DNA from: Candidatus Enterousia sp.
GTDB lineage: Bacteria; Pseudomonadota; Alphaproteobacteria; Rs-D84
Direction of reading: 5' to 3'
NCBI GenBank assembly: GCA_045631065.1
Contig: JAZQUA010000041.1
Span: 1-35,076 of the forward strand
Length of the DNA: 35,076 bases
The notes beneath the pieces are model-generated. The model worked only from the letters and a program-made list of their open reading frames with translations. It did not search any database and was not told the origin of the DNA. The position numbers were made by a program, and so were the translations under genes. Below, one piece after another: positions 7,319-35,076 of the stretch. The stretch's first letter is position 1. Every line of letters starts with the position of its first letter.

Positions 7319-7855
7319 TCAATAACCACTATAGTCTGCATTATTGTATAGCCGCCATTCTGCATCACGTCGCCCATCCAAGATTCCTCCATTTCTAAAC
7401 GCACGCCACGAGTCTTCTAAATTTGGGTAAATATTGCTTTTATATTTATTGTCATTCAAATATTTTCTAACCGTTGATTGGTATAGCCCACGATTTCTAT
7501 TTTGTGGTGCAGCAGACCCGGCCCCAATATTAAATACCAGCGACACCAATGCGTCATATTGGCTTTGTGTCATATTTAATATAGCATCGGCAGAGATTTG
7601 TTCATTTATTGTGTTATAGGTTGCTTGCAGGTCTTGTTCCAACAGTTCCGTTGCCTGTTGTTCCGTTAAACCAGCACTAAAATCTTCACCTGGCTTTACC
7701 AAATGTCCATAACCAATTGTTGCACCAACTGGCAATGGAACTCCTGCAGGTACAGGTTTGCCCGTGGCATCATCGTATATAACGTGTTTTCCATTAACTT
7801 TGACCGAACCTTCTAACCCTTTCAACCATTCGATACCTTTATCACTCATTTTCAT
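7319..7855 (-). CDS. Phage-type lysozyme (glycoside hydrolase family 24)
   Basis: MKMSDKGIEWLKGLEG...YDD...TIGYGH...LLEQDL...QSQYDALVSLVFNIG...RRDAE; start set at ATG 7855 with RBS AAAAGGTGA. Confidence 0.88.
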   Translation of the reverse strand: MKMSDKGIEWLKGLEGSVKVNGKHVIYDDATGKPVPAGVPLPVGATIGYGHLVKPGEDFSAGLTEQQATELLEQDLQATYNTINEQISADAILNMTQSQYDALVSLVFNIGAGSAAPQNRNRGLYQSTVRKYLNDNKYKSNIYPNLEDSWRAFRNGGILDGRRDAEWRLYNNADYSGY

Positions 7856-7856
7856 A

Positions 7857-7997
7857 TCAGTCACCTTTTGTAAATAAAAAACGCCCACATATGTGGGCAA
7901 CAAAATTGTCAATATTTGATGTTAAGTCGATACATCCAGCCGAGCCAGGAACCCAACCGCCATGAATACTAAAATCATCACAACCGTATGTTTGGGT
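7857..7997 (-). pseudogene. Orphan C-terminal fragment of a second Tlde1/DUF2778-like toxin
   Basis: Start-less frame TQTYGCDDFSIHGGWVPGSAGCIDLTSNIDNF..., 23/32 aa identical to the catalytic tip of the 8380-9426 protein; preceded by an in-frame TAA. Confidence 0.8.
7864..7900 (-). terminator. Terminator-like hairpin directly upstream of the lysozyme RBS
   Basis: GCCCAC-ATAT-GTGGGC followed by GTTTTTTATTT and ACAAAAGG on the minus strand. Confidence 0.65.
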
Positions 7998-8011
7998 TTA
8001 TTTTTGAACAA

Positions 8012-8365
8012 CTAAAATTTTGCATAATGATATAACAAAGTACCAAGCAAAGAATCTGTCCAAGATATTATAATCGGACTTAACGCAAGCCAGAAAGATA
8101 CTTTATAATTTTTCTTATACAAAAAATACAATGATACTGGAATAAAAAACAACAGCGTGGCACAAGAAGATACCAGATTTGTTAAATATACATCTGCACT
8201 ACGCCATGCCCAGCCCATAGATTCACCGCCCCATGGACAATAATTAAACGGAAACGCATCACGACATTCTTTGATAAAAAATTCATAATAATCAGTAAGC
8301 AGTCCATATAAAAGCAATATATTTATACCAAGACAAATTATCGTGCCACGTTTCCATTTTTGCAT
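8012..8365 (-). CDS. Small membrane protein, candidate immunity protein
   Basis: ATG 8365 with RBS AAAAGGG, 14 nt after the toxin stop; about 3 TM segments with a loop containing C...CPWGGESMGWAW; immunity role inferred from position only. Confidence 0.6.
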   Translation of the reverse strand: MQKWKRGTIICLGINILLLYGLLTDYYEFFIKECRDAFPFNYCPWGGESMGWAWRSADVYLTNLVSSCATLLFFIPVSLYFLYKKNYKVSFWLALSPIIISWTDSLLGTLLYHYAKF

Positions 8366-8379
8366 ACATAACCCTTTTG

Positions 8380-9426
8380 CTAGTATTTTACATGTACAAT
8401 CAGGTCGTTTCCAGTACTTTCTAGCCAAGATGTAAAAGCATTTATTTGCCCAGTCATATCAATACAGCCGGCCGAACCCAAATTCCAACCACCATGAATT
8501 GAGAAATCATCACGACCGTATGTGTCGGTTTCTTTTGATGGCTCCAACCATACACGAGAGCTGCCCCACGAATAATAACTCCCTGGCCAGAAACCAATTT
8601 GTTCCCCCACAATAGCAGCTACCCCTAACACAGCGTCAGGCAGCGTTATATACTGCAATTTTTCCTGCCTTGCAACGTATGTGCCTTCGGGGATTGGTCC
8701 TGTGTCTTTCAGGTTTTGGTATTCGGGGCTTCTGTATCCATCTTTGCCCGATACTGCATCCCACGACATAATTGGTTTATCGTTTTCGTACAGTGTAAAT
8801 TTCTTACCATCAAATACCGCATATTGTCCTGGCTTTACATTCACCGGCTTTTCAAAGGTCGCATTTTCAATGCTTTTATTTCTCTCTTTCTTTTCCAGTT
8901 CTTGGTTTATTTTTACTTCTGTCCAGTGGCCGGGTTTGACAGCGCCACGCTCTTTGATTTTTTGTAATTTTCTGAACTTTTCAATCGCATCAAACAGTTT
9001 CTGGTTCGGATACGGATTGGGATTGTCGGCACTTTCGCCAGCACGGGTATCGGGTTCATAGCAATCCAACTGGGTCAGTGATTTTTTTAACCATTCTATA
9101 TCACGTGTATCAACATTTCTGTCCGGGGCAACCGTGCCATGCAGGTTCGATTTGTGCTGTTCTGCGTTTTTGATATCTTGTGGACTCAAAGAACAACCAC
9201 AATGCGGATGAAACGGTGGACCTGATACAACAACCCCGTCAACAATCAATGCAACGCATCCACCACATTCACCACCACAATCAACAGTGGCGTATGTATG
9301 TTCGGGTTCGTCTTCTTCGTATTCTTCCAATTCTTCATCTGTTTCTTCGACTGGCGGTTCTGCGTAGATATCCAGAACCAATTCGCCATTTTCATTCCAG
9401 GTGACCTCATCCCAAATATTGCTCAT
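8380..9426 (-). CDS. Polymorphic-toxin-like protein: MuF-like Cys/His motif + peptidoglycan-binding-like domain + Tlde1/DUF2778 (L,D-transpeptidase-fold) C-terminus
   Basis: CGGC...DG...PPFHPHCGC (MuF-type motif); WLKKSLTQLDCY...LFDAIEKFRKLQKIKERGAVKPG (PG-binding-like); AVSG...GPIPEGTY...WG..RVWLEP...RDDFSIHGG...GSAGCI (DUF2778); RBS AAGGAG before ATG 9426. Confidence 0.75.
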   Translation of the reverse strand: MSNIWDEVTWNENGELVLDIYAEPPVEETDEELEEYEEDEPEHTYATVDCGGECGGCVALIVDGVVVSGPPFHPHCGCSLSPQDIKNAEQHKSNLHGTVAPDRNVDTRDIEWLKKSLTQLDCYEPDTRAGESADNPNPYPNQKLFDAIEKFRKLQKIKERGAVKPGHWTEVKINQELEKKERNKSIENATFEKPVNVKPGQYAVFDGKKFTLYENDKPIMSWDAVSGKDGYRSPEYQNLKDTGPIPEGTYVARQEKLQYITLPDAVLGVAAIVGEQIGFWPGSYYSWGSSRVWLEPSKETDTYGRDDFSIHGGWNLGSAGCIDMTGQINAFTSWLESTGNDLIVHVKY

Positions 9427-9538
9427 CAAAACTCCTTTTGTTAAATAAAAACACCCGCACGTGGCGGGTAATAAAAAAGACGACCAAATGTCGTCCGCTG
9501 AATAAGTGCATTATACCATAAAACACGAAAATTTTCAA
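9427..9538 (-). promoter_or_regulatory. Sigma70 promoter and leader with two terminator-like hairpins upstream of the toxin gene
   Basis: TTGAAA(9538-9533)-17-TATAAT(9515-9510) with extended TG; hairpins GACGAC/GTCGTC+TTTTTT and ACCCGC/GCGGGT+GTTTTT. Confidence 0.7.
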
Positions 9539-9747: not shown

Positions 9748-9823
9748 TGGTGGGGACACAGGGACTCGAACCCTGGACCCAATGATTAAAAGTCATTTGC
9801 TCTACCAACTGAGCTATGTCCCC
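9748..9823 (-). tRNA. tRNA-Lys(TTT)
   Basis: GGGGACATAGCTCAGTTGGTAGAGCAAATGACTTTTAATCATTGGGTCCAGGGTTCGAGTCCCTGTGTCCCCACCA; 76 nt cloverleaf, encoded CCA. Confidence 0.97.
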
Positions 9824-11849: not shown

Positions 11850-11947
11850 AAATTATACATATTTTTCGACAAAAAAACACAGGAATTATTGATTTTTTAG
11901 CATTTTTGCACTATAATAACATGAGTAAAACAAAAGGCACATACGAT

Positions 11948-13762
11948 ATGGCATTTGAAACCAAAAATTTCATTATTGATTTAGCGATGCAGTTAAATCT
12001 GAACAACATGGACGATGCTACGCGTGCCAGATTGGCTGACCTGAAAAAAAAGGGTGTTGCAACCAAAGATCAAAATTCGTGGGAACCCGGCAAGGAACCC
12101 CCAACGATAGATACAATAACACCTGCAACTGCAACAACCCCAGCAATATATAAATATAATGGAAATCCTGTCGCTGGTGGTGCCGCTCCTGTGGTTAATG
12201 ACTTAAATGATTTGTACTTAAAACTGGTAGTCATATTACGCGACTTGGCGGCAGATTCTGAATTAAGTGCCGAAGATCCTGTAAAATCATTTTTAAACAA
12301 TTTTTATGGTGCCGGTAAGGCTGTTGAACCTTATACAGCAAGCGCCCTACCCGCAACAGATGCGGCAGATATTGGAAGATACATTTCAGCAAACAAAGTT
12401 CTGTTGGCTGCAGGGATGGGTATTTCTGAAAACGATTTAGATTCATTGGCTGGAACTTTAACTGGTGGCACGTACAATACCAATGCAAAATCATTAAAAA
12501 CATTCGACAAATTTTTGGTCGGATTATATAACTGGAACGATAATGGTGGCGCGCGCCCAATACCAGGTGCTTTGCCCGGCTGTTTAATCACAGGTGGCGA
12601 TATAGATTATGGAAAATTATTTGGCATAAGAAGCACCATTAATACACCAGTCAATCCAAATTCTGCACAATTAACACAATTGTCAGACAATATAAATAAA
12701 ATGTTTGGCAAATTGGTGTCTAATGAAAAATTATTTGAAAAATTTCAAAGCAAAGACGAAGACGGCAAAGTTTCAAATTGGATTTCCAAAGGTATAAATA
12801 AATCCAATTATAAAACCGGTGATAATGCACTGGCACCAAAATATGATGATCGCAAACAATTTTGGGATGACACCAAGGCAAAGATACAAGATTGGTATGT
12901 TGACACGCTTGGAAAATTAGAACAAAAGCATACTCGTCACCTATATACAACAAATGCCAGATATATTGTTGCAGGATTGATAAAAAAAGGGGTCAAACCA
13001 ACAGATGGCACCGGCAAAATATTAGATACATTGGATGCAATAAATGGTGATTTACCAAACCCTGTACAAAAACAAGTTAAATGGATTAAAGACACCCTTA
13101 AAAAAATGAAAGGCACAAATTTCTTTAAGGATGCACTGCGTGATGGCGACCAGATGCGCCAACTGGTTCAAGAAATCATCAAGGCTGCCGCACACGATGG
13201 AAAAAAAGAAGAAGCCAAGGTTGCATTGGAAATGCTGGCTGTAATGCGATATACGTTAACAACATCGTCTGTGCGCGATCAATTGAAAAAGACAGAATTT
13301 AAACTGTTTTCTGACAGCAGTTTGTCTTTTAACAAAGGCAATAAATTTATGCAATCAATGACAAATGCGCTGGATAAAACATTAAAGTTTGGCATGATGG
13401 CTGCGTTTGAAGTTGGAAACTTTGCAAAAAATTCAATCAAACAACAGGGCTTAAAATTTGGCAGTGGCACACAAAATCTGGACAAACGAACAACAGACAG
13501 CGTAGATTATGCAGACCCAGACAAACAACAAATTATGGAAGAACTGTTTGGTTTTTGGGATTTTGTAAATTCTTCTGCAAATACCAAGGATTATAACATA
13601 TTCCAAAGACATTCAAATGCACAAAAAAAGCAAGATGCAATCAACAAGGATAAAATTACTGTAAATCTGACAGCAGGATCGCTGGATTTGGAACATAATA
13701 CAAACCAACAGAAACAGTTCTTGGAATATCTGCGTGATAATAACATTGGACGCGCGGCTTGA
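11948..13762 (+). CDS. Large hypothetical protein (about 604 aa)
   Basis: Long ORF with genome-like codon usage; start set at ATG 11948 after AAAGG (ATG 11922 also possible); no family recognised. Confidence 0.75.
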   Translation: MAFETKNFIIDLAMQLNLNNMDDATRARLADLKKKGVATKDQNSWEPGKEPPTIDTITPATATTPAIYKYNGNPVAGGAAPVVNDLNDLYLKLVVILRDLAADSELSAEDPVKSFLNNFYGAGKAVEPYTASALPATDAADIGRYISANKVLLAAGMGISENDLDSLAGTLTGGTYNTNAKSLKTFDKFLVGLYNWNDNGGARPIPGALPGCLITGGDIDYGKLFGIRSTINTPVNPNSAQLTQLSDNINKMFGKLVSNEKLFEKFQSKDEDGKVSNWISKGINKSNYKTGDNALAPKYDDRKQFWDDTKAKIQDWYVDTLGKLEQKHTRHLYTTNARYIVAGLIKKGVKPTDGTGKILDTLDAINGDLPNPVQKQVKWIKDTLKKMKGTNFFKDALRDGDQMRQLVQEIIKAAAHDGKKEEAKVALEMLAVMRYTLTTSSVRDQLKKTEFKLFSDSSLSFNKGNKFMQSMTNALDKTLKFGMMAAFEVGNFAKNSIKQQGLKFGSGTQNLDKRTTDSVDYADPDKQQIMEELFGFWDFVNSSANTKDYNIFQRHSNAQKKQDAINKDKITVNLTAGSLDLEHNTNQQKQFLEYLRDNNIGRAA

Positions 13763-13890: not shown

Positions 13891-14454
13891 ATGACACGTG
13901 TTTTACAAATCAGACGCGGTACAGCCGCACAACATAAAAACTTTGTCGGGTTGCCTGGCGAAATTACAATGGATACAGATAATAAAACAATTCGTCTGCA
14001 CGACGGTATAACATTGGGTGGGATAACTGTTGGCACTGGTGGCAACGGTGATAACGATTTTGATATCAACAGTGTACCTGATGAATTCTGGGCAGACATT
14101 GTTGCAAAACATATGCCTGCCCCATTCAAAGTTATTGAAACAAAACAAATAACTTTTACAAATAATTCCGCAGGCAAAGAACTGGTCGTTGGTGGTACAG
14201 ACATCCCAAAATTTATACAAACTGTACTGGTATGTCAATCAGCCGAAGCAGGTTATTCTGTCGGTGATGAAGTGTGGAGCTGGGGTATCGGAAACCGCGC
14301 AAATCCAAACCCACAACCCGCATATGACCAAGACGGACTGAGAATTAAAATGATGATAAATAACGAAGCCTTTTGGGTTAACCACAAGAACACAGGTGCA
14401 AAAACATCGATAACAGATACAAATTGGCGCATTTTATACCGAGTTTACTGTTGA
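13891..14454 (+). CDS. Phage fibre-like protein with Mtd_N (major tropism determinant N-terminal)-like domain
   Basis: N-terminus LQIRRGTAAQHKNFVGLPGEITMDTDNKTIRLHDGITLGG matches the Mtd_N/phage fibre head consensus; RBS AAAGGA. Confidence 0.75.
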   Translation: MTRVLQIRRGTAAQHKNFVGLPGEITMDTDNKTIRLHDGITLGGITVGTGGNGDNDFDINSVPDEFWADIVAKHMPAPFKVIETKQITFTNNSAGKELVVGGTDIPKFIQTVLVCQSAEAGYSVGDEVWSWGIGNRANPNPQPAYDQDGLRIKMMINNEAFWVNHKNTGAKTSITDTNWRILYRVYC

Positions 14455-14503
14455 AAATAAAAAATAGCTTTGCTATGCTTGGGGCGAAGAAAAAGGATTT
14501 CAT

Positions 14504-15745
14504 ATGTATATACTTGCATTAAATTGTGGCTCTTCGTCCCTGAAATATCAGGTTTTTGACGCAGAAACTAAAACAGCTGTTGTTGGTGGTAACGTTGAAA
14601 AAATCGGTTTGGCTGATTCTTTCTTGACCCAAAAATACCCAGACGGCACAAAACAAAAGAAAGTTGTTTCTATGCAGAATCATGACGAAGCATTAAATAA
14701 TGTTTTGATGATGTTGCGCGAAGCATCAATTGACTTGAACGAAATCAAGGGTGTTGGCCACCGTGTTGTTATGGGGGGCGATAAATTTGCATCTTCTGTT
14801 GAAATCACAGACGAAGTTATCAAAACTATCGATAAACTGTCACCTTTGGCACCATTACACAACCCACCTGCACTGCGTGGTATTATGACTGCACAACAGT
14901 TGTTGCCAAACGCAAAGCAAGTTGCTGTATTTGATACTGCGTTCCATCAGACAATGCCAGATTACGCATACCGTTATGCTGTGCCAATGGCTTGGTACAA
15001 AGAACTGGGGGTTCGCAGATATGGATTCCATGGAACCAGCCACCTGTACGTTTCAAAACGCGCCGCAAAAATGCTGGGCAAGAATGCCAAAGACTGCAAC
15101 TTTATCACAATGCATATCGGTTCTGGGGCATCTGCAACCGCAATCCGTAACGGTGTTTCTGTTGATACATCTTTGGGTATGACACCGCTGTCTGGATTGA
15201 CAATGGGTACACGCCCAGGCGATTTGGATCCAGGTGTTGTTCTGTACGTTATGGAACAATTGCAATTGTCACCTGCACAAATGCAGACTCATTTAAGCAA
15301 AGATTCCGGTCTGAAAGGTATTACTGAATGCTTTGTTGACCGTCGTGACGTAGAAGAAAATAAATCTACAAACGATTTGTGCCGCTTGGCCATCGATACC
15401 GAAGTTCACAATGTAAAAAAATACATCGGTGCATATATGGCAGAACTGGGCCACGTTGATGCAATTATCTTTACAGCAGGTGTTGGCGAAAATGACGATT
15501 ATCTGCGCGAAAAGTTCTGTACAGGATTGGAAGAACTGGGCATCAAACTGGATGTTGAAAAGAACGCAAAGTCATTGGCACGTTTGGGCGTTGACGAAAC
15601 AGAAATCAGCACACCAGACAGCAAGGTAAAGGTATTTATGATTCCAACAAACGAAGAATTGGTTATCGTTGAAGATACCTTGGCTATTATGAACGGCACA
15701 TATAATCCAAACCACTTGGAAATGGATTACAGCTTTTCAAAATAA
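14504..15745 (+). CDS. ackA: Acetate kinase
   Basis: LNCGSSSLKY, GHRVV, APLHNP, VFDTAFHQT, RRYGFHGTSH, FTAGVGEN, IPTNEE. Confidence 0.97.
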   Translation: MYILALNCGSSSLKYQVFDAETKTAVVGGNVEKIGLADSFLTQKYPDGTKQKKVVSMQNHDEALNNVLMMLREASIDLNEIKGVGHRVVMGGDKFASSVEITDEVIKTIDKLSPLAPLHNPPALRGIMTAQQLLPNAKQVAVFDTAFHQTMPDYAYRYAVPMAWYKELGVRRYGFHGTSHLYVSKRAAKMLGKNAKDCNFITMHIGSGASATAIRNGVSVDTSLGMTPLSGLTMGTRPGDLDPGVVLYVMEQLQLSPAQMQTHLSKDSGLKGITECFVDRRDVEENKSTNDLCRLAIDTEVHNVKKYIGAYMAELGHVDAIIFTAGVGENDDYLREKFCTGLEELGIKLDVEKNAKSLARLGVDETEISTPDSKVKVFMIPTNEELVIVEDTLAIMNGTYNPNHLEMDYSFSK

Positions 15746-15750
15746 AAAAT

Positions 15751-15780
15751 AAAATCCCCCGTTTGGGGGATTTTTCTTTT
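15751..15780 (+). terminator. Rho-independent terminator after ackA
   Basis: AAAATCCCCC-GTTT-GGGGGATTTTTCTTTT. Confidence 0.85.
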
Positions 15781-15864
15781 CCCTCATCCCCACACAGGTG
15801 GGAATAACGTTTTTTTGGAATTGTAGCGGAACACAATGGATCCCGACCTGCGTCGGGATGACGG
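15781..15864. repeat. Palindromic element, RPE/dRS3-like
   Basis: Outer inverted ends CCCTCATCCC...GGGATGACGG, each arm itself a hairpin (CCCAC/GTGGG; ATCCCGAC/GTCGGGAT). Confidence 0.65.
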
Positions 15865-15971
15865 TGTGTTTGGTTTTCCTACCGACCAGGATGCTCGCGA
15901 CAACTTACACCAATCACTAACCACTATTTTATTATTGAATCCGGGCGTTTTTTTCACTAAATTTATTATAT

Positions 15972-25483: not shown

Positions 25484-25485
25484 TC

Positions 25486-25685: not shown

Positions 25686-25709
25686 ATCTGATATATATGG
25701 GGGGATTTT

Positions 25710-27055: not shown

Positions 27056-27848
27056 ATACGGAAAAAAAATGAAACAACAGTTTTGTATCTTTATCAGTTT
27101 AATATTTGCATTTTTAATGCCAAACCTTGTTATGGCCAGTGCATTTGAGATGGATGATTATACAATCGTTGACAGCGAAGATGCAGACCTGACAACCGAT
27201 GAAGTATTTTTAAATTCTGATGCAGATGTATTGGGTGTTTCTTCGTTTGATATCGCAGGTATTATGCTGGGGATGTCGTTTGATGATGTGCAAACACTGT
27301 TCTTTGATAATCGTGGATTGTATGCCCCCAGAAAGAAAAACAGTATTATTTATACTATACACAAAGATTGGAAATACAACTTGGACTATGAATGCAGAAA
27401 TCAGGGAATTGTAATTCCAGCAGAACTGGAAAAGTGCATCAACAGCTTGGCACGAAATCGCGGATTATTGTATGCATCTGAATTGCACCTGGTTCGTGAA
27501 AATACAGGCGAAACAGTTGTTGTATATTTTACCAGTAATGCAACTGATAATCTGGTATGGCGTGTTGTTTATAATAACGATGTCAATGAACAAGAAGGCG
27601 ATGCAGAAAAATTCGCACGCCAACGCGAAAATAAAATTTTAGCGTTTTGGCAGAATGTGCTTGATAAATATGGCGCACCGAATTCGGGGTCTGATAAATG
27701 GATATCCAGTACAAATGCATATGACCCAATGCTGACAGCATACTATGGCGCATTGGATTTGATTGATAATGGACGTAATGCATCAGACCACGCGAAAAAC
27801 ATCCAAGATGCGCGTGAAAACTTTAAGGCAAAGCCATATGCATTCTGA
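27048..27848 (+). CDS. Exported hypothetical protein
   Basis: Signal-peptide-like N-terminus (start 27048 or 27069); FDIAGIMLGMSFDDV...LDKYGAP motif typical of periplasmic proteins. Confidence 0.7.
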   Translation: MNKYGKKMKQQFCIFISLIFAFLMPNLVMASAFEMDDYTIVDSEDADLTTDEVFLNSDADVLGVSSFDIAGIMLGMSFDDVQTLFFDNRGLYAPRKKNSIIYTIHKDWKYNLDYECRNQGIVIPAELEKCINSLARNRGLLYASELHLVRENTGETVVVYFTSNATDNLVWRVVYNNDVNEQEGDAEKFARQRENKILAFWQNVLDKYGAPNSGSDKWISSTNAYDPMLTAYYGALDLIDNGRNASDHAKNIQDARENFKAKPYAF

Positions 27849-28188
27849 TACATCATATACCAAAGGACTGTTTGCAGAATTTATTGCACGTATGTATCTG
27901 CGACTGCATGGGTACAAAATTGTAAAATCTAGATATATTACAGGCCGCAATACTAATCGCGCAGAAATTGATATTATTGCAAGACGTAAAGATACATTGG
28001 CTTTTATCGAAGTAAAAAATCGTAAAAATGTTCAAAATGCCTGGGATGCAATTACAGCACGCCAGGCTGTACGACTGCGCCGCGCAGCAGAAACATATAT
28101 CGCACAAAATAAATGGACAGGTAACGCACGATTTGATGTGATATTTGTATGCGGACATCGCGTTCATTGGATAAGAAACGCGATATAA
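27838..28188 (+). CDS. yraN: YraN family (UPF0102) putative endonuclease
   Basis: GLFAEFIARMYLRLHGYKI, EIDIIA, LAFIEVKNR, RFDVI; start moved to ATG 27838. Confidence 0.9.
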   Translation: MHSDTSYTKGLFAEFIARMYLRLHGYKIVKSRYITGRNTNRAEIDIIARRKDTLAFIEVKNRKNVQNAWDAITARQAVRLRRAAETYIAQNKWTGNARFDVIFVCGHRVHWIRNAI

Positions 28189-28251
28189 ACTTGAAAAAAT
28201 GAAAATCTTCCTGTATACTTATTCGTGTTGACTAACCTAAAAGGAGAAAAC

Positions 28252-28401
28252 ATGAAAAAAATTATGTTAGCATTGTTCGCAGTATTAACACTGTCTGCAT
28301 GTGGTGGTTATTATAAATCAGGTAATTGTGAATACGAATTTTTGTTACACAAAGATATTTCTATTTCAAAAATCGTTGGTAATATGACTGGCGGTTGCTA
28401 A
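28252..28401 (+). CDS. Small lipoprotein, YhfL/DUF4223-like (49 aa)
   Basis: Not in ORF track; RBS AAGGAG; MKKIMLALFAVLTLSA-CGGYYKSGNCEYEFLLHKDISISKIVGNMTGGC; NC-Y--LLH--ISISKI-G--C resembles YhfL. Confidence 0.8.
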   Translation: MKKIMLALFAVLTLSACGGYYKSGNCEYEFLLHKDISISKIVGNMTGGC

Positions 28402-28431
28402 AAAAATTCCCCCGTTTGGGGGATTTTTTTT
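28401..28431 (+). terminator. Rho-independent terminator
   Basis: TCCCCC-GTTT-GGGGGA followed by a T8 tract; same core as the ackA terminator. Confidence 0.85.
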
Positions 28432-28496
28432 GATATATATTGAATTTTATTATCGTTTGCACTAATATCAATATATGAACAAAAAAGGATTCTAAT

Positions 28497-29036
28497 ATGT
28501 GGACAACAATCGCAGTTATCGTAATTATATCTTTGTATTTTATCGCGGTTTATAATGGTCTGATTGCCAGACGTAACCAAGTCCGCGAAGCGTGGGCAAC
28601 AGTGGACACACAGTTAAAGCGCAGATATGATTTAATCCCAAATCTGATTGAAACTGTACGTGGTGCCGCAAAACACGAAAAAGAAACATTGGCAGAATTG
28701 ACACGCGCCCGTACAACTGCGATGAATGAAAATGGAATCGACAGCGCAGATGCACAAAATAAAATATCTAAAACACTAAAAAGCCTGTTCGCTGTGGCAG
28801 AAAATTACCCAGACTTAAAGGCAAATCAAAACTTTTTAGAACTGCAACAAGAACTGGCCGATACAGAAAACAAAATTCAGGCGACACGTCAATTTTATAA
28901 TACTGTTGTTATGGGACTAAATACACAAATTGAACAATTCCCATCTAATTTGGTGGCAAATATGTTCGGGATTACACCAGAAAAAATGTTCGAAATTGAT
29001 GACAGTGAAAAAATAACACCAAAGGTTAGATTCTAA
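28497..29036 (+). CDS. lemA: LemA family protein
   Basis: YNGLIARRNQVREAW, QLKRRYDLIPNL, AVAENYPDLKANQNFLELQ, EQFPSNLVA. Confidence 0.95.
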   Translation: MWTTIAVIVIISLYFIAVYNGLIARRNQVREAWATVDTQLKRRYDLIPNLIETVRGAAKHEKETLAELTRARTTAMNENGIDSADAQNKISKTLKSLFAVAENYPDLKANQNFLELQQELADTENKIQATRQFYNTVVMGLNTQIEQFPSNLVANMFGITPEKMFEIDDSEKITPKVRF

Positions 29037-29040
29037 AAGC

Positions 29041-29871
29041 ATGGTCCAAGATTTTACATTACATACACACACCATTGATTTTGACGGTAAAAATACCGCG
29101 GAACAAATGGTGGATGCAGCCAAAAAATGCGGTATGAAAACCGTTGGCATATCAAATCATTTTATTGTACATCCTGATATTAAAAAGACTAAATTTTATC
29201 CGTTTGCTGTCGCTGGTGGATACAGTCGCATGTACAACGCTGATTTCAAAACAGCAATATTAAACTTCCAAAAGCACTATGAACACTTGGAACACATTGC
29301 CGCAGATTACAACATAAATATACTACGTGGTATGGAACTAGATTTATTTGATGCCAGACGTTGGTATAACGGATATGCACATACAGTCAAAGTATTAAAG
29401 CCTGATTATATTATCGGTTCTGCGCACTTTATCGAATATAATGGAAAATTATGTAATATACATGATATGAAAAATGCATCACCAGATGACCAAGACAAAA
29501 TGTTACAGGCATACTGGAATAAAGTTCAATGGATTGCAAAATCTGGGTTATGCAGCTTTTTGGCACACATCGACTTACCTGCACGATTAAATTTGGGTTT
29601 GGATGAAAAATGGACAGATGCAGAATACAAAACAATCGATGTAATTGCAGAATCTGGGATTCCTGTGGAGATAAATACAGCACTATATAAACGCGCAGAC
29701 CGACCACATCCATCGCCACGCATTATGCAAATGTGCGCAGATAAAAAGATACCTATGTTTTTATCAGATGACTCGCATCATATCGACCATGTGTGTAAAT
29801 ACTTTGAAGAAGCAAAAAAATATGCAGACAGTTTTGGTGTAAAACTTATTGGACTGGACAAAATTCTTTAA
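29041..29871 (+). CDS. PHP-domain phosphoesterase (HisJ/histidinol-phosphatase-like)
   Basis: LHTHT, SNH, GMELD, IGSAH, AHID, EINT, SDDSH. Confidence 0.85.
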   Translation: MVQDFTLHTHTIDFDGKNTAEQMVDAAKKCGMKTVGISNHFIVHPDIKKTKFYPFAVAGGYSRMYNADFKTAILNFQKHYEHLEHIAADYNINILRGMELDLFDARRWYNGYAHTVKVLKPDYIIGSAHFIEYNGKLCNIHDMKNASPDDQDKMLQAYWNKVQWIAKSGLCSFLAHIDLPARLNLGLDEKWTDAEYKTIDVIAESGIPVEINTALYKRADRPHPSPRIMQMCADKKIPMFLSDDSHHIDHVCKYFEEAKKYADSFGVKLIGLDKIL

Positions 29872-30779
29872 TCGTTTGCACGCGGATGCGAATTCGCATA
29901 AATATTCGTGATTTCTGCCATATTGACCTTGGTATATAACTGGGTTGTTGATAACGATGAATGACCCAGTAATTCTTGCAGACTGCGTAAATCAGCGCCA
30001 CCCGCCAGTAATGCTGTTGCAAATGTATGCCGTAATGCATGGGGTGTTACAAAATCTGGTAATTGTAAATAATGTCGCAGATTTTCTACAACCTTTTGCG
30101 CCATACGTGGTGACATTGGCAGGCCACGCACACTGCGAAACAATTCATCTGTGGGACTGTTGCCAAATGGGCGAATAGTAATATATTTTTCAATTGCATC
30201 CCATACAACAGGCAATACAGGTACCAATCTTTCCTTGTTACCCTTACCTGTTATGCGCAGGACATCTGGACGGCCACGAACATCCAGATTACGCAAAGAT
30301 AACGCTTCGGATATACGCAGGCCACAGCCAAACAGCAAAACAACCAACGCCCAATCACGCACAGCCAGCCATGGTTCGTTCATATCAATATCACGAATTG
30401 CGCCACGCATATGTTCAATATCAATTGGTTCAATTGCCTTGGACAATTTGCGCGGAACCTTGGGCGAAGAAATCAGACCAATTGCATCATTTTTTATGTT
30501 ATGATGACGCGCTAAATATTTATAAAAACCACGCAGTGATGACAACGCGCGTGCAGTCGATTTATGTGACAGACCACGCCGTTGACGATTTGCCAAATAA
30601 GATCTAAAACACAATGTATCTGCACGTGACAGGTCACGCGGAAACGGCGGCGCACCAAAAAAAGTTTCATAAAATCGCAAAAAATCACGAATATCTGCAT
30701 CATATGCCGATGCAGTATGTGACGAATAGTTCTTCGTCTGGGTTAAATAGTCGATAAATTCAACAACGACTTCGTTCAA
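29868..30779 (-). CDS. xerC: Tyrosine recombinase XerC
   Basis: ARALSSLRGFYKYL, GCGLRISE, GKGNKERLVP, TPHALRHTFATALL, DLRSLQELLGHSSLSTTQLYT, HPRA. Confidence 0.9.
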   Translation of the reverse strand: MNEVVVEFIDYLTQTKNYSSHTASAYDADIRDFLRFYETFFGAPPFPRDLSRADTLCFRSYLANRQRRGLSHKSTARALSSLRGFYKYLARHHNIKNDAIGLISSPKVPRKLSKAIEPIDIEHMRGAIRDIDMNEPWLAVRDWALVVLLFGCGLRISEALSLRNLDVRGRPDVLRITGKGNKERLVPVLPVVWDAIEKYITIRPFGNSPTDELFRSVRGLPMSPRMAQKVVENLRHYLQLPDFVTPHALRHTFATALLAGGADLRSLQELLGHSSLSTTQLYTKVNMAEITNIYANSHPRAND

Positions 30780-30788
30780 TTATATGTC

Positions 30789-31520
30789 CTATTTTATTTC
30801 AAACACCGCAGATACGACGACAGAAACATCAGTATCACGCGACACAATTGTGCCAGCTGCATTATCTGCAACAGATGATGCCATTACCATCTTTGTGCGC
30901 AACAAACCATTTATCGGCGCCACAGAATCAGGCGCATTTGTTCCATACGATACAGATATCAAGCGCCCTGCCCGCTTATTATCACCAGATGCCAAGGCAT
31001 TGGCACGTGTACGTGCATTTTCAACCGCAACAGACAAACATTTTTCTGTTATTGGTTTTAGAACTTCGGGGCTGGTGTACATACGCAGATTTTCAGAATA
31101 TACATTTGGTTTGTTTGCAAACTGTGATAAAATTTGTTCTATTTCTTCAATACTGTTTGCAGAAACTTCGACAGCAATTGTTGTTTCAATTCCCAGTGTT
31201 ACAGATTTTTGTTCATCACGATTCCATTCTGTTTTTTCATAAGAATTAAACTGAGTCGTCTGTAATTGTACCGGTAACCCCTTTAAATATTCTGTGATTT
31301 CTGCCATTTGTGCGGTGGCAGAACGCATTGATTGTGCCGCACTGTCTGCCAGTGCAGTAACACGCAATGTAATAGCTGTTTTATCACGCGGTGCAGTTGT
31401 CAAACATTCACCGTTCACCGCAATCGTATGCGGAATTTCATTGTTATCGTGTGCGACAATACCCCACCCGACAAACAATATAATTAACAGCCCAATAAAT
31501 GTAATCAGCGAACGTTTCAT
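30789..31520 (-). CDS. SIMPL (DUF541) domain protein
   Basis: Signal/TM, TIAVNGE...APRD, AVENARTRANALA, C-terminal VSAVFEI. Confidence 0.8.
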   Translation of the reverse strand: MKRSLITFIGLLIILFVGWGIVAHDNNEIPHTIAVNGECLTTAPRDKTAITLRVTALADSAAQSMRSATAQMAEITEYLKGLPVQLQTTQFNSYEKTEWNRDEQKSVTLGIETTIAVEVSANSIEEIEQILSQFANKPNVYSENLRMYTSPEVLKPITEKCLSVAVENARTRANALASGDNKRAGRLISVSYGTNAPDSVAPINGLLRTKMVMASSVADNAAGTIVSRDTDVSVVVSAVFEIK

Positions 31521-31541
31521 ATTCTCTCTCCTAAATATTTT

Positions 31542-32543
31542 TTACTGACCCAACATTACATGTTTAACACGCGCCAATGTTTCTGTTGCCACAGGACGCG
31601 CACGTGATGCACCATGTTGCAATATCTGTTCTATTTCATCTGGATTTGCCATCAGACGTTCATATTCCGTACGCGCATCAGACAAAACAGAATTGATTTT
31701 TTCAAACAATATTGTTTTCGCAGTACCATATCCCATTCCACCCGCGCGGAACATTTCTGCAAATTCTGCAATTTCAGATTCAGATGCAAAATGTTTATAC
31801 AACTGATAAATCGTAGATTCATCAGGATTTTTTGCTTCTTCTGGTGTTTTTGAATCTGTGATAATACGCATAATCTTTTTTTTCAGTTCCTTTTCTGGTG
31901 CCATCAATGGAATTGTGTTGTCATAAGATTTGCTCATCTTTCTGCCATCCAGCCCAGGAATCAGACCTGTATCACGACCAATAACAGGTGTTGGCAACTT
32001 AAATATTTCACCGTATGTCTTGTTAAAGTAGCCTGCGATATCACGCGCAAATTCCACGTGCTGTTTTTGGTCTGCACCAACAGGCACAATATCAGAATTA
32101 TACAACAATATATCTGCGGACATCAAAATTGGATATGTGTACAATCCCATATTAATACCTGCATCAACATCATCGCCAGATGCGATATTTTTATCCATCG
32201 CAGCCTTGTACGAATGTGCGCGATTCATTAACCCCTTTGGTGTTACATTCATCAACAATGTGTTCAGTTGATAAATTTCATCAATATCAGACTGACGAAA
32301 CAAAACAGCATTATCCAGATTTAACCCCAAAGCGACCAACATCGCAGTGATTTCATATGTATGCTGTTTAATCAAAGATGCATCGTGAATCAAATTCAAT
32401 GCATGCAAATCTGCAATAAACATAAAAGTCTTTTGCGTTTGTGACTGTTCAATCAATGGTTTTAATGCACCGACATAGTTTCCAACATGTGGGGTTCCAG
32501 TTGGTTTAATACCCGTTAAAACGATTTTTTCTGTATTTGACAT
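31542..32543 (-). CDS. trpS: Tryptophan--tRNA ligase
   Basis: LTGIKPTG, HVGNY, FIADLHA, YPILMSADIL, VPVGADQKQH, KMSKS. Confidence 0.97.
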   Translation of the reverse strand: MSNTEKIVLTGIKPTGTPHVGNYVGALKPLIEQSQTQKTFMFIADLHALNLIHDASLIKQHTYEITAMLVALGLNLDNAVLFRQSDIDEIYQLNTLLMNVTPKGLMNRAHSYKAAMDKNIASGDDVDAGINMGLYTYPILMSADILLYNSDIVPVGADQKQHVEFARDIAGYFNKTYGEIFKLPTPVIGRDTGLIPGLDGRKMSKSYDNTIPLMAPEKELKKKIMRIITDSKTPEEAKNPDESTIYQLYKHFASESEIAEFAEMFRAGGMGYGTAKTILFEKINSVLSDARTEYERLMANPDEIEQILQHGASRARPVATETLARVKHVMLGQ

Positions 32544-32586: not shown

Positions 32587-32717
32587 AAAAATGAAAGCCC
32601 AAAAATTACAGGGCAGCAAAATAATTCAGGCGGCAATGCGCCAACATTTGTTTTCAGAAAAGATAAATGTATTTTTTAACATATGTTCATTATAGGACAC
32701 AAAAATCAAACTTGCAA
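32587..32717 (-). promoter_or_regulatory. Putative trpS promoter and attenuator region
   Basis: TTGCAA(32717-32712)-17-TATAAT(32694-32689); short Trp-containing ORF; weak hairpin GCCC/GGGC followed by TTTCATTTTT. Confidence 0.6.
32626..32682 (-). CDS. Putative leaderless leader peptide (18 aa, MLKNTFIFSENKCWRIAA)
   Basis: ATG lies at the predicted +1; one TGG codon near the end; directly upstream of trpS. Confidence 0.55.
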   Translation of the reverse strand: MLKNTFIFSENKCWRIAA

Positions 32718-32743
32718 TAAAAATCCCCCGGACGGGGGATTTT
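32716..32743 (-). terminator. Rho-independent terminator closing the phage-like operon
   Basis: AAAATCCCCC-(4 nt)-GGGGGATTTTTATT on the minus strand. Confidence 0.85.
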
Positions 32744-32787
32744 GAGTGTAAGTGGTTAGTGGCGGAATAAATACCATTAACCATCAA

Positions 32788-33048
32788 TTATTTTATCACT
32801 GCACCTTTTATCAGGGTCAGGTCTTCTTTGATATCATCAATCTTGATTTGGATTCTGGCAATACCTGTTTCCAATATTGTTGTTCTGTTTTCCAGCGCAG
32901 TTATACGATTATCAACACGTTCCAATTCCAACACAGAAAAGTCTTGCTTGGCTGCCCAATAAATTACCCCTGCGATAAACGCGATAATAAACCAACTGTC
33001 ACGCAAAAATTCAATCAGACCATTTACAGGGTGTGCTTTCGTTTTCAT
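32788..33048 (-). CDS. Small single-TM coiled-coil protein (phage-associated, possibly holin-like)
   Basis: One TM (SWFIIAFIAGVIYWAA) followed by heptads RITALENR...IDDIKEDL; last gene of the terL-portal operon. Confidence 0.65.
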   Translation of the reverse strand: MKTKAHPVNGLIEFLRDSWFIIAFIAGVIYWAAKQDFSVLELERVDNRITALENRTTILETGIARIQIKIDDIKEDLTLIKGAVIK

Positions 33049-33051
33049 GAT

Positions 33052-33249
33052 TTATTCCCCCCGTCCCCGCGATACAAGCGATTCAATCTGGTGCACCAAC
33101 ATACGCTGTGATTCCAATGAACGCAGTTCTGATTCTGTGGCATTTGCCCCCAATACGCGTTCAATCGTTATCTGACGCAAGTGCATCAGCACACGCTGCC
33201 CAGATGCACCAGAAAATGTTTTGGCATATGCCTGTTCTATATCTGTCAT
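33052..33249 (-). CDS. Bbp19-like phage protein
   Basis: YAKTFSGASGQRVLMHL...ESQRMLVHQIESLV, typical of the small gene after podovirus-type portals; start overlaps the portal stop. Confidence 0.75.
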   Translation of the reverse strand: MTDIEQAYAKTFSGASGQRVLMHLRQITIERVLGANATESELRSLESQRMLVHQIESLVSRGRGE

Positions 33250-34481
33250 AATGCACCCCCGATAACACTTTCCATCGCGGTCATTTGTGCGATTGGTGCA
33301 ATATATTTCAATTCTGCATCGCTGTTTAACTTGATTGGTTCAATTAGGCCGCGCGATGACAAAATCTGTAATCCCCTGTCACATAGCGGTCTGATAAATT
33401 CGTGTACCAGACGACCATATGTTGCCCCCAAAACGCGCATCATATCTGCGTTACGCGCCATTATTTCTGTTGCTGTCATTTCTTTTTCACTTAACAGCCC
33501 CAGTCTGTCAGCCAATAATGTATGACGTATGCGTTCACGCAGGTCTTTTAAAATAATTTGTGACACATCAAAGTTTGCCGCACTGGTCAAGGGTGTAAGA
33601 CCTGATGAACCAACTGCCTTTGGTATAATTGCCCCAGGGGTTAAATTAATATTATTCAGATTTATAACACCATCGTCATCGGCCTGCCAAATACCAGAAA
33701 CAGCAATTGTCGCATTTTTTAATACCAGTTCTACGACCTTGTTCGCTGTTTTTATATCTGGTAATGCGCGCATAATTGGACTGCGACCGTACAATTCGCC
33801 ACTGGCCACAGACCAGCGAAATACGATATATGGATTTGTTTCAAATGTGCCGGTCGACACGATATTATTTTCAATATCACCATCAACATCCAGCCATGCC
33901 GTAAATTCTGTCCCAACCAAGCTTTGCACCAGTTTTAATTGCAAATTTGGATCGTTTTTTATCGAATCTCGCAAATTTACAGGTGGTGTCCATGTAGGAT
34001 ATTTTTCCATAACCTCAGTCGCACTCATTGAAGTCGTATGAAATATTGCATTTGGTAAAATTGCAATATCTGACATTGGTATCGCTGTAAAATTAAACGC
34101 AGATGATGCCCCAATTGGATTTTGTCCCATAAATAAACAAGCAGTACCCAATGTGACTAAATCCATATAGCACTGATGTATTGTCGTATAGAAATTAGAA
34201 TCATTTAAATGCGCACGCAAAACAGATGTCGCATAATCTGCATCTGGTGACAAATCGCTTTCACGCACCAGTTGCAACCACATTGATTCTGGTGGTGTCA
34301 GCAATGTGTACATAGATGCTGCTAAATTATCTGCTGCATCTGATGCTGTTGCATCATACAATGTTGCCAAATCATTGTCTGATGTTGGCATTGTATATCT
34401 GCGCGCATCATCCCAACGATTAACCCATGGTTCACGCAAACCAATTGCGCGTTTGTAAAGTTGCAATAAGTTATTTTGCAT
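33246..34481 (-). CDS. Phage portal protein (T7/BPP-1-type head-tail connector)
   Basis: YDATASDAADNLAAS, SNFYTTIHQCYMDLVTLGTACL, FRWSVASGELYGRSP..ALPDIKTAN, MTATEI. Confidence 0.88.
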   Translation of the reverse strand: MQNNLLQLYKRAIGLREPWVNRWDDARRYTMPTSDNDLATLYDATASDAADNLAASMYTLLTPPESMWLQLVRESDLSPDADYATSVLRAHLNDSNFYTTIHQCYMDLVTLGTACLFMGQNPIGASSAFNFTAIPMSDIAILPNAIFHTTSMSATEVMEKYPTWTPPVNLRDSIKNDPNLQLKLVQSLVGTEFTAWLDVDGDIENNIVSTGTFETNPYIVFRWSVASGELYGRSPIMRALPDIKTANKVVELVLKNATIAVSGIWQADDDGVINLNNINLTPGAIIPKAVGSSGLTPLTSAANFDVSQIILKDLRERIRHTLLADRLGLLSEKEMTATEIMARNADMMRVLGATYGRLVHEFIRPLCDRGLQILSSRGLIEPIKLNSDAELKYIAPIAQMTAMESVIGGAL

Positions 34482-34510
34482 TTTTATTCCTTTTTTTGTT
34501 TATTAGATTT

Positions 34511-35076
34511 TTAAATCTTGAAATTTGTATTTGCTGTAAATGTCTGAATTGTATACCCCAATGGGCGCACAACAGATGGCACTTGTGCGATAGCACCCGC
34601 GACCGCATCCAGGCCGTCATCGTGTCCGGTATACCCCACTGGCGACCAGCCAATCATTTCAGACAACAATGGTGTTTTTTGAATCCTGGTATGAGCATAC
34701 AGGCGTCCAGTACTTAACACCGGTTCAATCGCAGCCAAAATTCTGTCTGATTTTGATTTTGTATGTAATATGCGATTGATATATATCTTGCAACCGCGAC
34801 GCGACGCACAATCATGCATAATTTCTGGCACACCAATTCCAATACCATTTGTTTCAATTGTTATGTGACCAATCCCGCGCATATTCATAAAGTCAATTAT
34901 CATATCGCACTGACGCGACAATGGAAATTGTTCAGAATCAGATACCGTCAGGTATAAAATATCGTGAATAAATATGCGCTTGTTTTTATCATCGCGATAT
35001 ATCAGAACGCATGCACTGCCATCACGTCTACTGCGCCCTGTGGATGGATCCCAATATAAAACACAACCGGAAATCA
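34511..35076 (-). CDS. Phage terminase large subunit, C-terminal nuclease domain (5' part outside window)
   Basis: Frame open to window end: YWDPSTGRSRRDGSAC...IETNGIG...KSDRILAAIEP...GRL...HDDGLDAVAGAI. Confidence 0.87.
   Translation of the reverse strand, partial: ISGCVLYWDPSTGRSRRDGSACVLIYRDDKNKRIFIHDILYLTVSDSEQFPLSRQCDMIIDFMNMRGIGHITIETNGIGIGVPEIMHDCASRRGCKIYINRILHTKSKSDRILAAIEPVLSTGRLYAHTRIQKTPLLSEMIGWSPVGYTGHDDGLDAVAGAIAQVPSVVRPLGYTIQTFTANTNFKI

Follow-up and report, generated by a model that had tools for sequence, protein, structure and literature searches.

Gene transfer agents (GTAs) are known from only a handful of independent domestications, and the alphaproteobacterial GTAs that we found described in the open literature are all RcGTA-like or of the Bartonella type. 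RcGTA-like clusters persist in the reduced genomes of endosymbionts, according to the available portion of the source (PMC9254644), and our searches of the open literature gave no account of a conserved cluster or GTA of the T7-like kind from Alphaproteobacteria. Here we analyze a 35,076-bp stretch of DNA (the window, which is the whole of contig C41) from a genome bin of the alphaproteobacterium Candidatus Enterousia (G000; 920 kb, 72 contigs, 93% complete), together with contig C22 of the same bin, onto which a set of phage-particle genes at the right end of the window continues. We are highly confident that this particle gene set is domesticated, vertically inherited and under selection, and we think it fairly probable that it is a T7/HTVC010P-like podovirus set making DNA-packaging particles of the GTA type.

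Enterousia belongs to the order Rs-D84, with genomes under 1 Mb that have lost respiration and the tricarboxylic acid (TCA) cycle (PMC12306168, in its accessible part), and the terms phage, capsid and gene transfer were not found in the text on Enterousia in that part of the paper. Among reports that touch on the present subject, an "ancient prophage of Sphingomonadales" has an 18-kb conserved capsid/portal region that may be RcGTA-like or may belong to the family described here (excerpt of PMC5381585), and Azospirillum particles with random 10-kb host DNA have been tentatively ascribed to RcGTA-like regions (partial text of PMC3899980). PhiGT1 was considered as a match and rejected, as the section available concerns LUZ24/Mx8-like prophages, a different cluster (PMC10386132).

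Gene Content of the Particle Set

The phage-type genes at the right end of the window form a unit on the reverse strand that is closed by a terminator-like hairpin, with trpS next:

34511 to 35076, minus strand: terL-C, the C-terminal lid and RNaseH-like nuclease half of the large terminase (phrog_38, E 1.3e-20)
33246 to 34481, minus strand: portal (head-to-tail connector) of T7 type (PF12236, E 2.6e-83; phrog_332, E 7.7e-68)
33055 to 33249, minus strand: Bbp19-like protein of 65 amino acids (aa) (PF25181, E 1.3e-8, above the cut-off)
32788 to 33048, minus strand: 86-aa membrane protein with one N-terminal hydrophobic helix and a coiled coil (hydropathy, sequence)
32710 to 32753: G+C-rich terminator-like hairpin with a T-run (inverted repeat I15; 21-nt arms, 86% complementary)

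The terL-C open reading frame (ORF) is cut by the contig end and extends on C22 to about position 514, for a total of about 290–310 aa; its Pfam matches fall below the cut-off, and it corresponds to positions 550–705 of the phrog_38 profile. The Bbp19-like gene directly follows the portal gene, the same as in the canonical alphaproteobacterial cluster described below, and PF25181 also matches a 95-aa ORF after the portal at locus L117 (E 2.5e-10). In 60 of 80 Enterousia loci, the flanks of which end thereabouts, the gene for the 86-aa membrane protein comes after that of the portal; the protein has a weak match to phrog_1193 "hemolysin" (E 5e-4) and is a candidate lysis protein, of the holin/XhlA-like or spanin-like type.

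A sequence-only reading of the window had described its phage-type genes as a dispersed system scattered through housekeeping DNA, with the head module running to position 35,076. That coordinate is where the contig stops and not where the element does. The last 141 bp of C41 are the first 141 bp of C22 (an exact overlap), the N-terminus of terL-C lies on C22, and the gene order across C41 and C22 is uninterrupted on single contigs in four relatives of the same genus; we therefore treat the two contigs as continuous. About 11 kb of structural genes sit just past the window end, and a single gene, that of the Mtd_N protein discussed below, stands apart, displaced by an inversion. C22 starts with the end of terL-C, followed on the opposite strand by dnaB, a regulator with two helix–turn–helix (HTH) motifs and a 213-aa gene. 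The particle genes are on the terL strand, and their order as given here runs against transcription:

C22, terL strand: terL-N, the terminase ATPase piece, 205 aa (phrog_38, E 1e-42, profile positions 279–459; Terminase_6N)
C22:4352-4915, terL strand: gp17-N-like fibre adaptor, 187 aa (T7 fibre N-terminal domain PF03906, just below the cut-off)
C22, terL strand, after the fibre adaptor: 115-aa gene
C22, terL strand: tail tube B (gp12-like), 570 aa (phrog_376, E 2.3e-87)
C22, terL strand: tail tube A (gp11) (PF17212, just above the cut-off)
C22, terL strand: 73-aa phage gene (phrog_18004, E 1e-12)
C22, terL strand: major capsid protein (PF19821, E 3.8e-71)
C22:8970-9356, minus strand: lysine/alanine-rich basic repeat protein, 128 aa, between scaffold and capsid
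C22, terL strand: T7-type scaffold (PF05396)
C22, terL strand, after the scaffold: endolysin-like gene
C22:12056-12331, minus strand: Cro/C1-type HTH ORF, 91 aa, just upstream of the cluster (sub-threshold Pfam match)

Beyond the endolysin-like gene are a lipoate-ligase-like (lipB-like) host gene and small HTH genes. The lysine/alanine-rich protein starts with AKKVAAKPVAKK... and has a weak histone-H1-like HC2 match; relatives have an ORF at its place that is barely alignable.

The genes named by the sequence-only reading are where it placed them, as judged by the ORF listing and by Pfam and PHROG scans, and the capsid, scaffold and tail genes that it proposed to seek elsewhere in the genome are on C22. 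The bin has one capsid, one portal and one Terminase_6N match. A T7-type portal, a scaffold, tubes A and B and a fibre with a gp17 N-terminal domain are all present; the module is T7/HTVC010P-like and not specifically of the BPP-1 type that had been proposed. Neither the C41 module nor C22 showed an integrase, an att site or a replication module within the cluster or next to it, which agrees with the earlier reading of the window. Two outcomes that this reading had named as refuting it, a complete prophage past 35,076 and a genome devoid of any capsid gene, did not arise.

A Terminase in Two Pieces

The terminase gene adjoining the portal encodes only 285–332 aa in all eight relatives first examined, whereas the intact terminases of four other Alphaproteobacteria are 487–501 aa long. 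In an alignment of the Rs-D84 pieces, drawn from five families, with these intact proteins, the N piece ends just after the motif IGTPHxxDTIY and the C piece starts at the next conserved block, with nothing lost or duplicated, and the fission point is identical in all five families examined. The N piece retains the P-loop (GKS/T) and an acidic, Walker-B-like run after a hydrophobic strand, and in the C piece acidic residues persist in three blocks (WDP, ETNG and DDGLD). By name and role, we take these motifs to be the P-loop, a Walker-B-like run and the nuclease acidic residues. terL-N and terL-C are adjacent in two families, are separated by the portal gene and ftsZ in two genomes of another, and in Enterousia are separated by dnaB, the regulator and the third gene, all on the opposite strand. 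A split intein or intron as the cause of the fission was ruled out: when aligned to the intact homologues the two pieces meet exactly and carry nothing additional, and they lie up to 7 kb apart with opposite-strand genes between them. That the fission is old and both halves have been kept under selection suggests a working two-subunit enzyme. By dividing the terminase of a whole order into an ATPase piece and one with lid and nuclease, the fission offers a natural experiment in how packaging motors are constructed.

The Mtd_N Protein and an Inversion in the Window

Another phage-type gene of the window lies 18 kb from the portal, at the left side of a block that is turned round relative to relatives:

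13891 to 14454, plus strand: Mtd_N-headed protein, 187 aa (PF18454, E 6.6e-15, residues 6–41 only)
13891 to 32543: inverted block holding the Mtd_N gene, ackA, recG ... bamA ... trpS (gene order against relatives)

The Mtd_N match is the only one in the bin. In two relatives (G013 and G006) the Mtd_N gene directly follows the portal and membrane-protein genes, in G013 the frr-to-bamA block then follows in the order expected if 13891–32543 of the window were turned round, and at three loci (L086, L090 and L094) ackA follows the membrane-protein gene. G004, the sister of our bin in the tree described below, has the same orientation as the window. The position of the Mtd_N gene and ackA in our bin is therefore explained by one lineage-specific inversion of 18.6 kb. 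No long inverted repeats or insertion sequence elements were found at the inversion borders, which carry repeated terminator-like hairpins only.

Of 41 relatives, 30 encode Mtd_N-headed proteins, each genome giving one to three matches. The C-terminal parts of these proteins vary: they are 41–56% identical within the genus, and forms of 357–463 aa occur in other families. The short in-cluster adaptor (181–194 aa) and the Mtd_N protein are both present in 18 of 24 genomes of the genus and both absent from the other six, so that the two agree in all 24; five of the six carry elsewhere a protein of 243–388 aa with a gp17-type N-terminal domain. Mapped on the tree, this pattern requires two or more separate changes, one that sets G003 apart from G013 and one that sets G004 apart from G000, and we regard the co-occurrence as suggestive, the related genomes being non-independent. 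Structure prediction of a complex of three adaptor chains with three copies of Mtd_N residues 1–120 gave a score of 0.54, compared with 0.00 for the best of three controls; of 80 solved complexes 58 reach the mark used, as do 2 of 110 mismatched pairs, but only 7 of those 80 reach it with a score of 0.60 or under, a range that holds both of the mismatches that pass. Agreement between the runs is at least 81% of contacts, with a predicted local distance difference test (pLDDT) value of at least 61 for the partner, and the model lends weak support to docking of the two proteins. The Mtd_N gene is a member of the particle set, as the earlier reading had supposed, since it is next to the portal in relatives, was moved by the inversion and co-occurs with the adaptor. 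Its product probably forms the distal part of the fibre, binding the receptor and docking on the short gp17-N-like adaptor.

The bin also encodes a diversity-generating retroelement (C39:7014-8767), in which a template-like repeat of 131 bp lies immediately upstream of a reverse transcriptase ORF of 346 aa (C39:7727-8767). Copies of the repeat, roughly 91% identical, are at C39:20931-21061, C58:2288-2418 and C28:657-786, at the 3′ ends of three small genes for signal-peptide proteins (159–177 aa), and the template differs from its copies mainly at adenines; for two copies aligned in register the differences are at template adenines. The Mtd_N protein was considered as a target of this retroelement and rejected, there being no copy of the template repeat on C41.

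Distribution, Descent and Selection

The portal is found in all 24 other genomes of the genus (72–85% identity) and in 12 of 16 genomes from five other Rs-D84 families (42–48% identity). The capsid is found in 186 of 201 Rs-D84 genomes (179 of the 191 of good quality), including 147 of 151 in Candidatus Enterousia, and is the single match in nearly all carriers; the Rs-D84 genomes that keep the set are 0.7–1.1 Mb in size. A capsid of the HK97 type (PF05065) has no match in the five genomes searched (G000, G003, G013, G028 and G035). Among 80 Enterousia loci around the capsid, compared together with our bin, the same gene order recurs wherever contigs reach, including dnaB between the terminase pieces.

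For the 80 loci we calculated the ratio of nonsynonymous to synonymous substitution rates (dN/dS; Nei–Gojobori, pairs with dS 0.05–1.2). The rough values for particle genes are 0.063 (capsid), 0.07 (portal), 0.09 (gp12-like tube B), 0.107 (terL-N), 0.11 (fibre adaptor), 0.166 (terL-C), 0.19 (tube A) and 0.19 (scaffold), and those for the neighboring host dnaB and HTH regulator are 0.052 and 0.075. Among 57–80 copies per gene, at most one has an internal stop. Even allowing for their roughness, the dN/dS values are in clear contrast to neutral decay.

In a tree of concatenated capsid, tube A, portal, tube B and terL-N sequences (24 rows; quick IQ-TREE with the Shimodaira–Hasegawa-like approximate likelihood ratio test, SH-aLRT), the nine Rs-D84 rows form one clade (SH-aLRT 100), the five rows of the genus form one clade (100), two genomes of one family pair (100), and the nearest isolated phage, Pelagibacter phage Hodr, is on a long outside branch; the clades follow genus, family and order. 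The conclusion of the sequence-only reading that this is a host-maintained, podovirus-derived set and no decaying prophage is borne out by near-universal retention, low dN/dS and an order-wide clade. Its proposed checks for single-copy, conserved and tree-congruent genes came out in its favor for copy number, selection and agreement with taxa, the last by a quick tree compared with taxonomy. A 5084-bp fecal record labeled "UNVERIFIED: Bacteriophage sp." (L144, MT838907.1; capsid 63% and portal 41% identical) groups in the tree with chromosomal copies of other Alphaproteobacteria and may be bacterial DNA or DNA from such a particle.

The particle genes are embedded among essential host genes. 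The only DnaB_C gene of our bin has a terL half on either side. G028 and G035 each have a single FtsZ-family gene, which is directly upstream of the portal, between portal and terL-N; an ftsZ is at the same position beside the portal in G040; and an AmiC-like amidase is also beside the portal in G028. The order of the particle genes differs between Rs-D84 families. This embedding among dnaB and ftsZ is hard to reconcile with an excisable element. With regard to ftsZ itself, FtsZ/tubulin (PF00091) has no match in three Enterousia genomes (G000, G003 and G013, two of them in 2 and 5 contigs), and the genes next to the portal at G028:C7:21020-21496 and G035:C1:119806-120288 are the only ones, one per genome; the genus Enterousia may divide without FtsZ.

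Homologous Clusters in Other Alphaproteobacteria

Outside the order, in an even draw of the class, the capsid is found below E 1e-60 in 51 of 298 genomes at 43–68% identity, and in 13 families both sampled genomes have it. In Azospirillaceae it is present in 36 of 51 genomes (74–91% identity) and is all-or-none by genus (8/8, 6/6, 6/6, 2/2 and 2/2 as against 0/7 and 0/2). In the protein database, 6242 clusters match the capsid at E ≤ 1e-30. At ten loci outside the order the canonical gene order is portal, Bbp19-like gene, scaffold, capsid, a gene of 80–90 aa, tube A, tube B, a weakly gp14-like gene, a fibre of 675–708 aa, a small ORF, an intact terminase, a 110-aa gene and a cell-wall hydrolase. 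The match to T7_gp14 is weak (E 0.0044, for an ORF after tube B in another alphaproteobacterium), and the ORFs that precede terL in the canonical cluster have no detectable homologue in Enterousia. The homologous clusters in other Alphaproteobacteria hold structural genes only and span 12–15 kb, with host genes directly outside them (pyrD and lysS at one locus, lnt and a lolC-like permease at another); beside one cluster (L115) are genes for a GTA_holin_3TM protein and a CI/LexA-like repressor (15544-16194). The Rs-D84 set is a rearranged form of this canonical cluster in which the terminase is split and the fibre shortened.

The Toxin and Lysozyme Locus

The left part of the window carries genes that the sequence-only reading had assigned to the same particle, as a toxin with a MuF motif and a lysozyme:

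8380 to 9429, minus strand: polymorphic cell-wall toxin, 349 aa (C-terminal Tlde1/YkuD domain, E 2.1e-7; PF10908, PF03734)
8012 to 8428, minus strand: small membrane protein with several helices, whose ORF overlaps the toxin-gene end (hydropathy; weak sub-threshold PF24052 match)
7319 to 7912, minus strand: GH24 lysozyme module (PF00959, E 2.1e-18)

Three elements make up the N-terminal 190 aa of the toxin: an acidic stretch, the motif CGGxCxxC...PPFHPxCxC and a domain that binds peptidoglycan, for which PG_binding_1 matches 22 of 37 homologues. We take the Cys/His motif to resemble MuF, and a short motif is all that this resemblance amounts to: Phage_Mu_F (PF04233) has no match in the toxin of the window and matches 3 of the 37 homologues, the best with a nonsignificant E of 0.17. 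The N-terminal part is kept in 104 protein clusters whose C-terminal ends are Tlde1/YkuD, GH24, GH108 or DUF4407. The GH24 ORF of the window aligns to the GH24 ends of full-length members of the toxin family and is preceded at 7896–8012 by a Tlde1-domain fragment (62% identical, one stop); it has the look of a C-terminal cassette from this polymorphic family, either orphaned or alternative. The small membrane protein, encoded between the two modules, is a candidate immunity protein, judging from its place and hydropathy, and such an arrangement is typical of polymorphic toxin loci.

The N-terminal domain of the toxin is found in 4 of 24 genomes of the genus and 0 of 16 others of the order, the whole protein in 16 of 24, often as fragments, and 0 of 16, and GH24 in 14 of 24 and 3 of 16. 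Given this patchy distribution, set against near-universal particle genes, the locus is probably a separate polymorphic peptidoglycan-toxin island and no core part of the particle. The proposed particle "loaded with cell-wall toxins" is accordingly without support; the toxin may be an occasional cargo or penetration enzyme. A tRNA-Lys gene (9748–9823, minus strand) borders the locus, which may be a small island inserted at the tRNA.

Hints of Expression

A search of sequencing runs yielded two metatranscriptomes besides bulk gut metagenomes, with no library of virus-like particles among them. Half or more of the words sampled from the stretch are present in 18 DNA runs from gut metagenomes, and all 20 holders come from 13 studies. 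In one gut RNA library, contigs lie on tube B, tube A and capsid with 4–10 differences in 243–415 bases (97–99% identity), and a second covers dnaB and the regulator. These RNA contigs are weak evidence for transcription of the particle genes. Very high RNA depth over a low-complexity lysine/alanine-rich ORF (C22:8821-9702) is uninformative, as are parts of C22 without contigs. The strongly RNA-covered interval C22:11908-12348 overlaps the 91-aa HTH ORF and corresponds to no known RNA in Rfam. RNA-library contigs from two studies cover this ORF (C22:12056-12331), whose product is a possible regulator of the particle genes.

Interpretation and Alternatives

The set consists of resident phage virion and packaging genes with no replication, integration or excision module of their own, inherited vertically under purifying selection; we found no contiguous element with integrase, att site, and lysogeny and replication modules, and no patchy distribution of the kind expected of a functional prophage. 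A particle and packaging set that is kept by the host at low dN/dS fits the genomic signature used to recognize GTAs. We posit that the genes still build DNA-filled, podovirus-like particles, that the two-piece terminase would fill them, most likely with host DNA, that lysis would release them, and that two-piece fibres, consisting of the short adaptor and the variable Mtd_N head, would target them, the result being a GTA-like viriform.

Several observations weigh against this proposal. The set is known from its genes alone, from which we infer particle function. No small terminase was recognized and no gp15/gp16-like ejection proteins were found in the cluster (tblastn with the small ORFs and fibre of the canonical cluster; Pfam and PHROG on the cluster ORFs), so that a T7-type particle might fail to package or eject DNA as T7 does, and the two-piece terminase could also lie on the way to losing packaging. 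Of the 201 genomes of the order, 15 gave no capsid match, among them a 1-contig and a 5-contig genome; the set is therefore dispensable. With regard to the data, dS is near saturation (median about 1.0–1.1), which makes dN/dS rough; the tree is a quick one with SH-aLRT values only, its clades set against host taxonomy and not a host tree; the RNA contigs could be DNA carried over into the libraries; and the bin is a metagenome assembly of 72 contigs, 93% complete with 3.5% contamination. The unrecognized small terminase and ejection proteins, together with the split terminase, leave room for a changed mechanism.

The same gaps lend some credence to the rival that survives best, namely that particles are made for a purpose other than DNA transfer, as a bacteriocin-like killing or cell-wall device, as a lysis or DNA-release programme, or for protein delivery. 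The set includes endolysin-like and membrane proteins, its small terminase and ejection proteins are unrecognized, and the peptidoglycan-toxin gene with its MuF-like motif is 4.5 kb from the Mtd_N gene here and 2–7 kb from Mtd_N genes in G023. We nevertheless consider this rival unlikely. Terminase halves that keep their ATPase and nuclease motifs under purifying selection are hard to explain without packaging, and neither the rarity of the toxin N-terminal domain beside near-universal particle genes nor the nonsignificant Phage_Mu_F match supports a toxin-delivery role.

The possibility of an inactive prophage remnant that persists by linkage to essential genes (dnaB, ftsZ) is raised by the rearranged cluster, the split terminase, the interleaving with those genes and the 15 genomes that lack the capsid. 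Linkage gives reading frames no protection from decay, and about ten genes are intact in nearly all of the 57–80 species-level copies at dN/dS of 0.06–0.19; retention of the set across the order in genomes of 0.7–1.1 Mb and the widespread homologous clusters in the class further argue against a remnant, to which we assign very little probability. We judge it just as improbable that the structural genes serve a satellite or phage-plasmid that borrows the capsid, or that the cluster is helper-dependent and still mobile. In size the structural-only clusters of 12–15 kb are similar to capsid-forming satellites, and repressor-like genes lie nearby (the CI/LexA-like gene at L115, the sub-threshold Cro/C1-type HTH gene on C22). 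Against mobility, the clusters have no integrase or replication gene and have host genes directly at their borders, host rearrangements rather than insertions account for shifts in their position and order, the groupings in the trees agree with host taxa, and within Azospirillaceae a genus has the capsid throughout or lacks it (8/8, 6/6, 6/6 and 0/7). An ordinary, recently acquired and potentially active temperate phage whose integrase and att sites are hidden by the contig break can be dismissed almost entirely, since, for all that the window ends inside terL and the bin has eight tyrosine-recombinase matches (seven above the Pfam cut-off), what lies beyond the window is dnaB, an HTH gene, structural genes and lipB-like host genes with no integrase, relatives at species level share this arrangement throughout the genus, identity to the nearest isolated phage is no more than 31–44%, and composition is host-like.

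Returning to domesticated GTA-type particles, we advance tentatively a broader proposition that is possible but more doubtful: that the class-wide clusters are an ancient second alphaproteobacterial GTA family of T7/HTVC010P-like podovirus origin, distinct from the siphovirus-derived RcGTA, present in many families and with a two-polypeptide terminase in Rs-D84, which might explain the 10-kb Azospirillum particles. The family would span gut Rs-D84 of 0.7 Mb and Azospirillaceae of 4–8 Mb, the Rs-D84 form lying among dnaB, ftsZ and amiC. If true, the T7-like set would be a second, unrelated alphaproteobacterial GTA lineage, and Azospirillum and Skermanella would offer culturable models for what the particles do. 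Survival of the set in genomes of less than 1 Mb that have lost respiration and the TCA cycle (PMC12306168, available part) and, in Enterousia, seemingly ftsZ argues for a real benefit to a gut-dwelling, probably dependent bacterium.

Other Features of the Window

Composition is even along the window and host-like. The housekeeping genes between its phage-type genes include those for an MFS transporter and an M48 protease, ackA, recG, tRNAs, frr, uppS, rseP, bamA, LemA, a PHP-domain gene, SIMPL and trpS. An Rfam gathering scan of the window and C22 returned three tRNAs and nothing else. Further features are:

29868 to 30779, minus strand: tyrosine recombinase (SAM_1 and integrase-domain layout)
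244 to 1734, minus strand: OLD-family nuclease at the left contig end (AAA_15 ATPase and OLD-like TOPRIM domain), probably a defence gene
11906 to 13762, plus strand; 3542 to 5128, plus strand; 25710 to 27848, plus strand: regions with unmatched ORFs
15751 to 15778, 28404 to 28432 and 32715 to 32743: near-identical terminator-like hairpin (AAAATCCCCCG...CGGGGGATTTT)

From its domain layout we take the recombinase to be Xer-like. It is the nearest to the portal module, with SIMPL and trpS in between; the earlier statement that the interval has no phage integrase holds for the particle set, which has none of its own, and has to be amended for this gene. Sizeable ORFs of 618, 528, 232, 215 and 274 aa have no Pfam or PHROG match, and the 618-aa gene is located at the left border of the inverted block. 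The triplicate hairpin follows unrelated genes and is possibly a repeated terminator element of this genome.

Comparison with Known Systems

MuF polymorphic toxins of temperate phages have reportedly been treated by Jamet and colleagues in 2017. Like these, the toxin at 8380–9429 combines a conserved N-terminal part carrying a Cys/His motif with interchangeable C-terminal toxin domains; unlike them, it has no significant Phage_Mu_F match, is not beside a portal or terminase gene, includes a peptidoglycan-binding domain and is patchy independently of the particle genes. The Bordetella phage BPP-1, the source of the names Bbp19 and Mtd_N, shares with the Enterousia set a Bbp19-like gene after the portal and an Mtd_N-headed fibre-tip protein. 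However, only the 37-residue Mtd_N domain is shared, the C-terminal part of the Enterousia protein is no retroelement variable region, and the other modules match T7-named families.

The nearest isolated phage is the Pelagibacter phage EXVC031P (OQ414635; HTVC010P-type, "Hodr", infecting SAR11), with a capsid 43.8% and a portal 30.8% identical to those of Enterousia and the shared order terL, portal, scaffold, capsid, tube A and tube B. It differs in its replicating genome of 34 kb, which is rich in early genes, has an ORF of 501 aa, undivided, where terL is expected, and continues after tube B with large ORFs (783 and 1247 aa), features that the Enterousia set is without. Host genes break up the Enterousia set, whose separate clade is congruent with its hosts and remote from the phage. 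FpGTA of Faecalibacterium is, according to the accessible part of the report, likewise a phage-derived, structural-only operon of a gut bacterium, with podovirus-like particles (PMC12946183). It belongs to another phylum and its packaged host DNA is directly evidenced by reads of 8.4–8.9 kb (same source and portion), whereas the Enterousia system is known from genes alone.

RcGTA-type GTAs differ in their unrelated siphovirus ancestry, with an HK97 capsid, a prohead protease and a tail tube where the Enterousia set is T7-like with a scaffold and tubes A and B. DNA transfer has been demonstrated for RcGTA, whereas the Enterousia set, with its split terminase, is described from its genes. What the two have in common is a chromosomal cluster of about 12–15 kb that holds structural and packaging genes only and is flanked by host genes, vertical descent with low dN/dS, fibre and lysis genes that are partly encoded elsewhere, a GTA_holin_3TM protein (in the present family, beside the homologous cluster at L115), and, as the available part of PMC9254644 indicates for RcGTA-like clusters, retention even in very small genomes.

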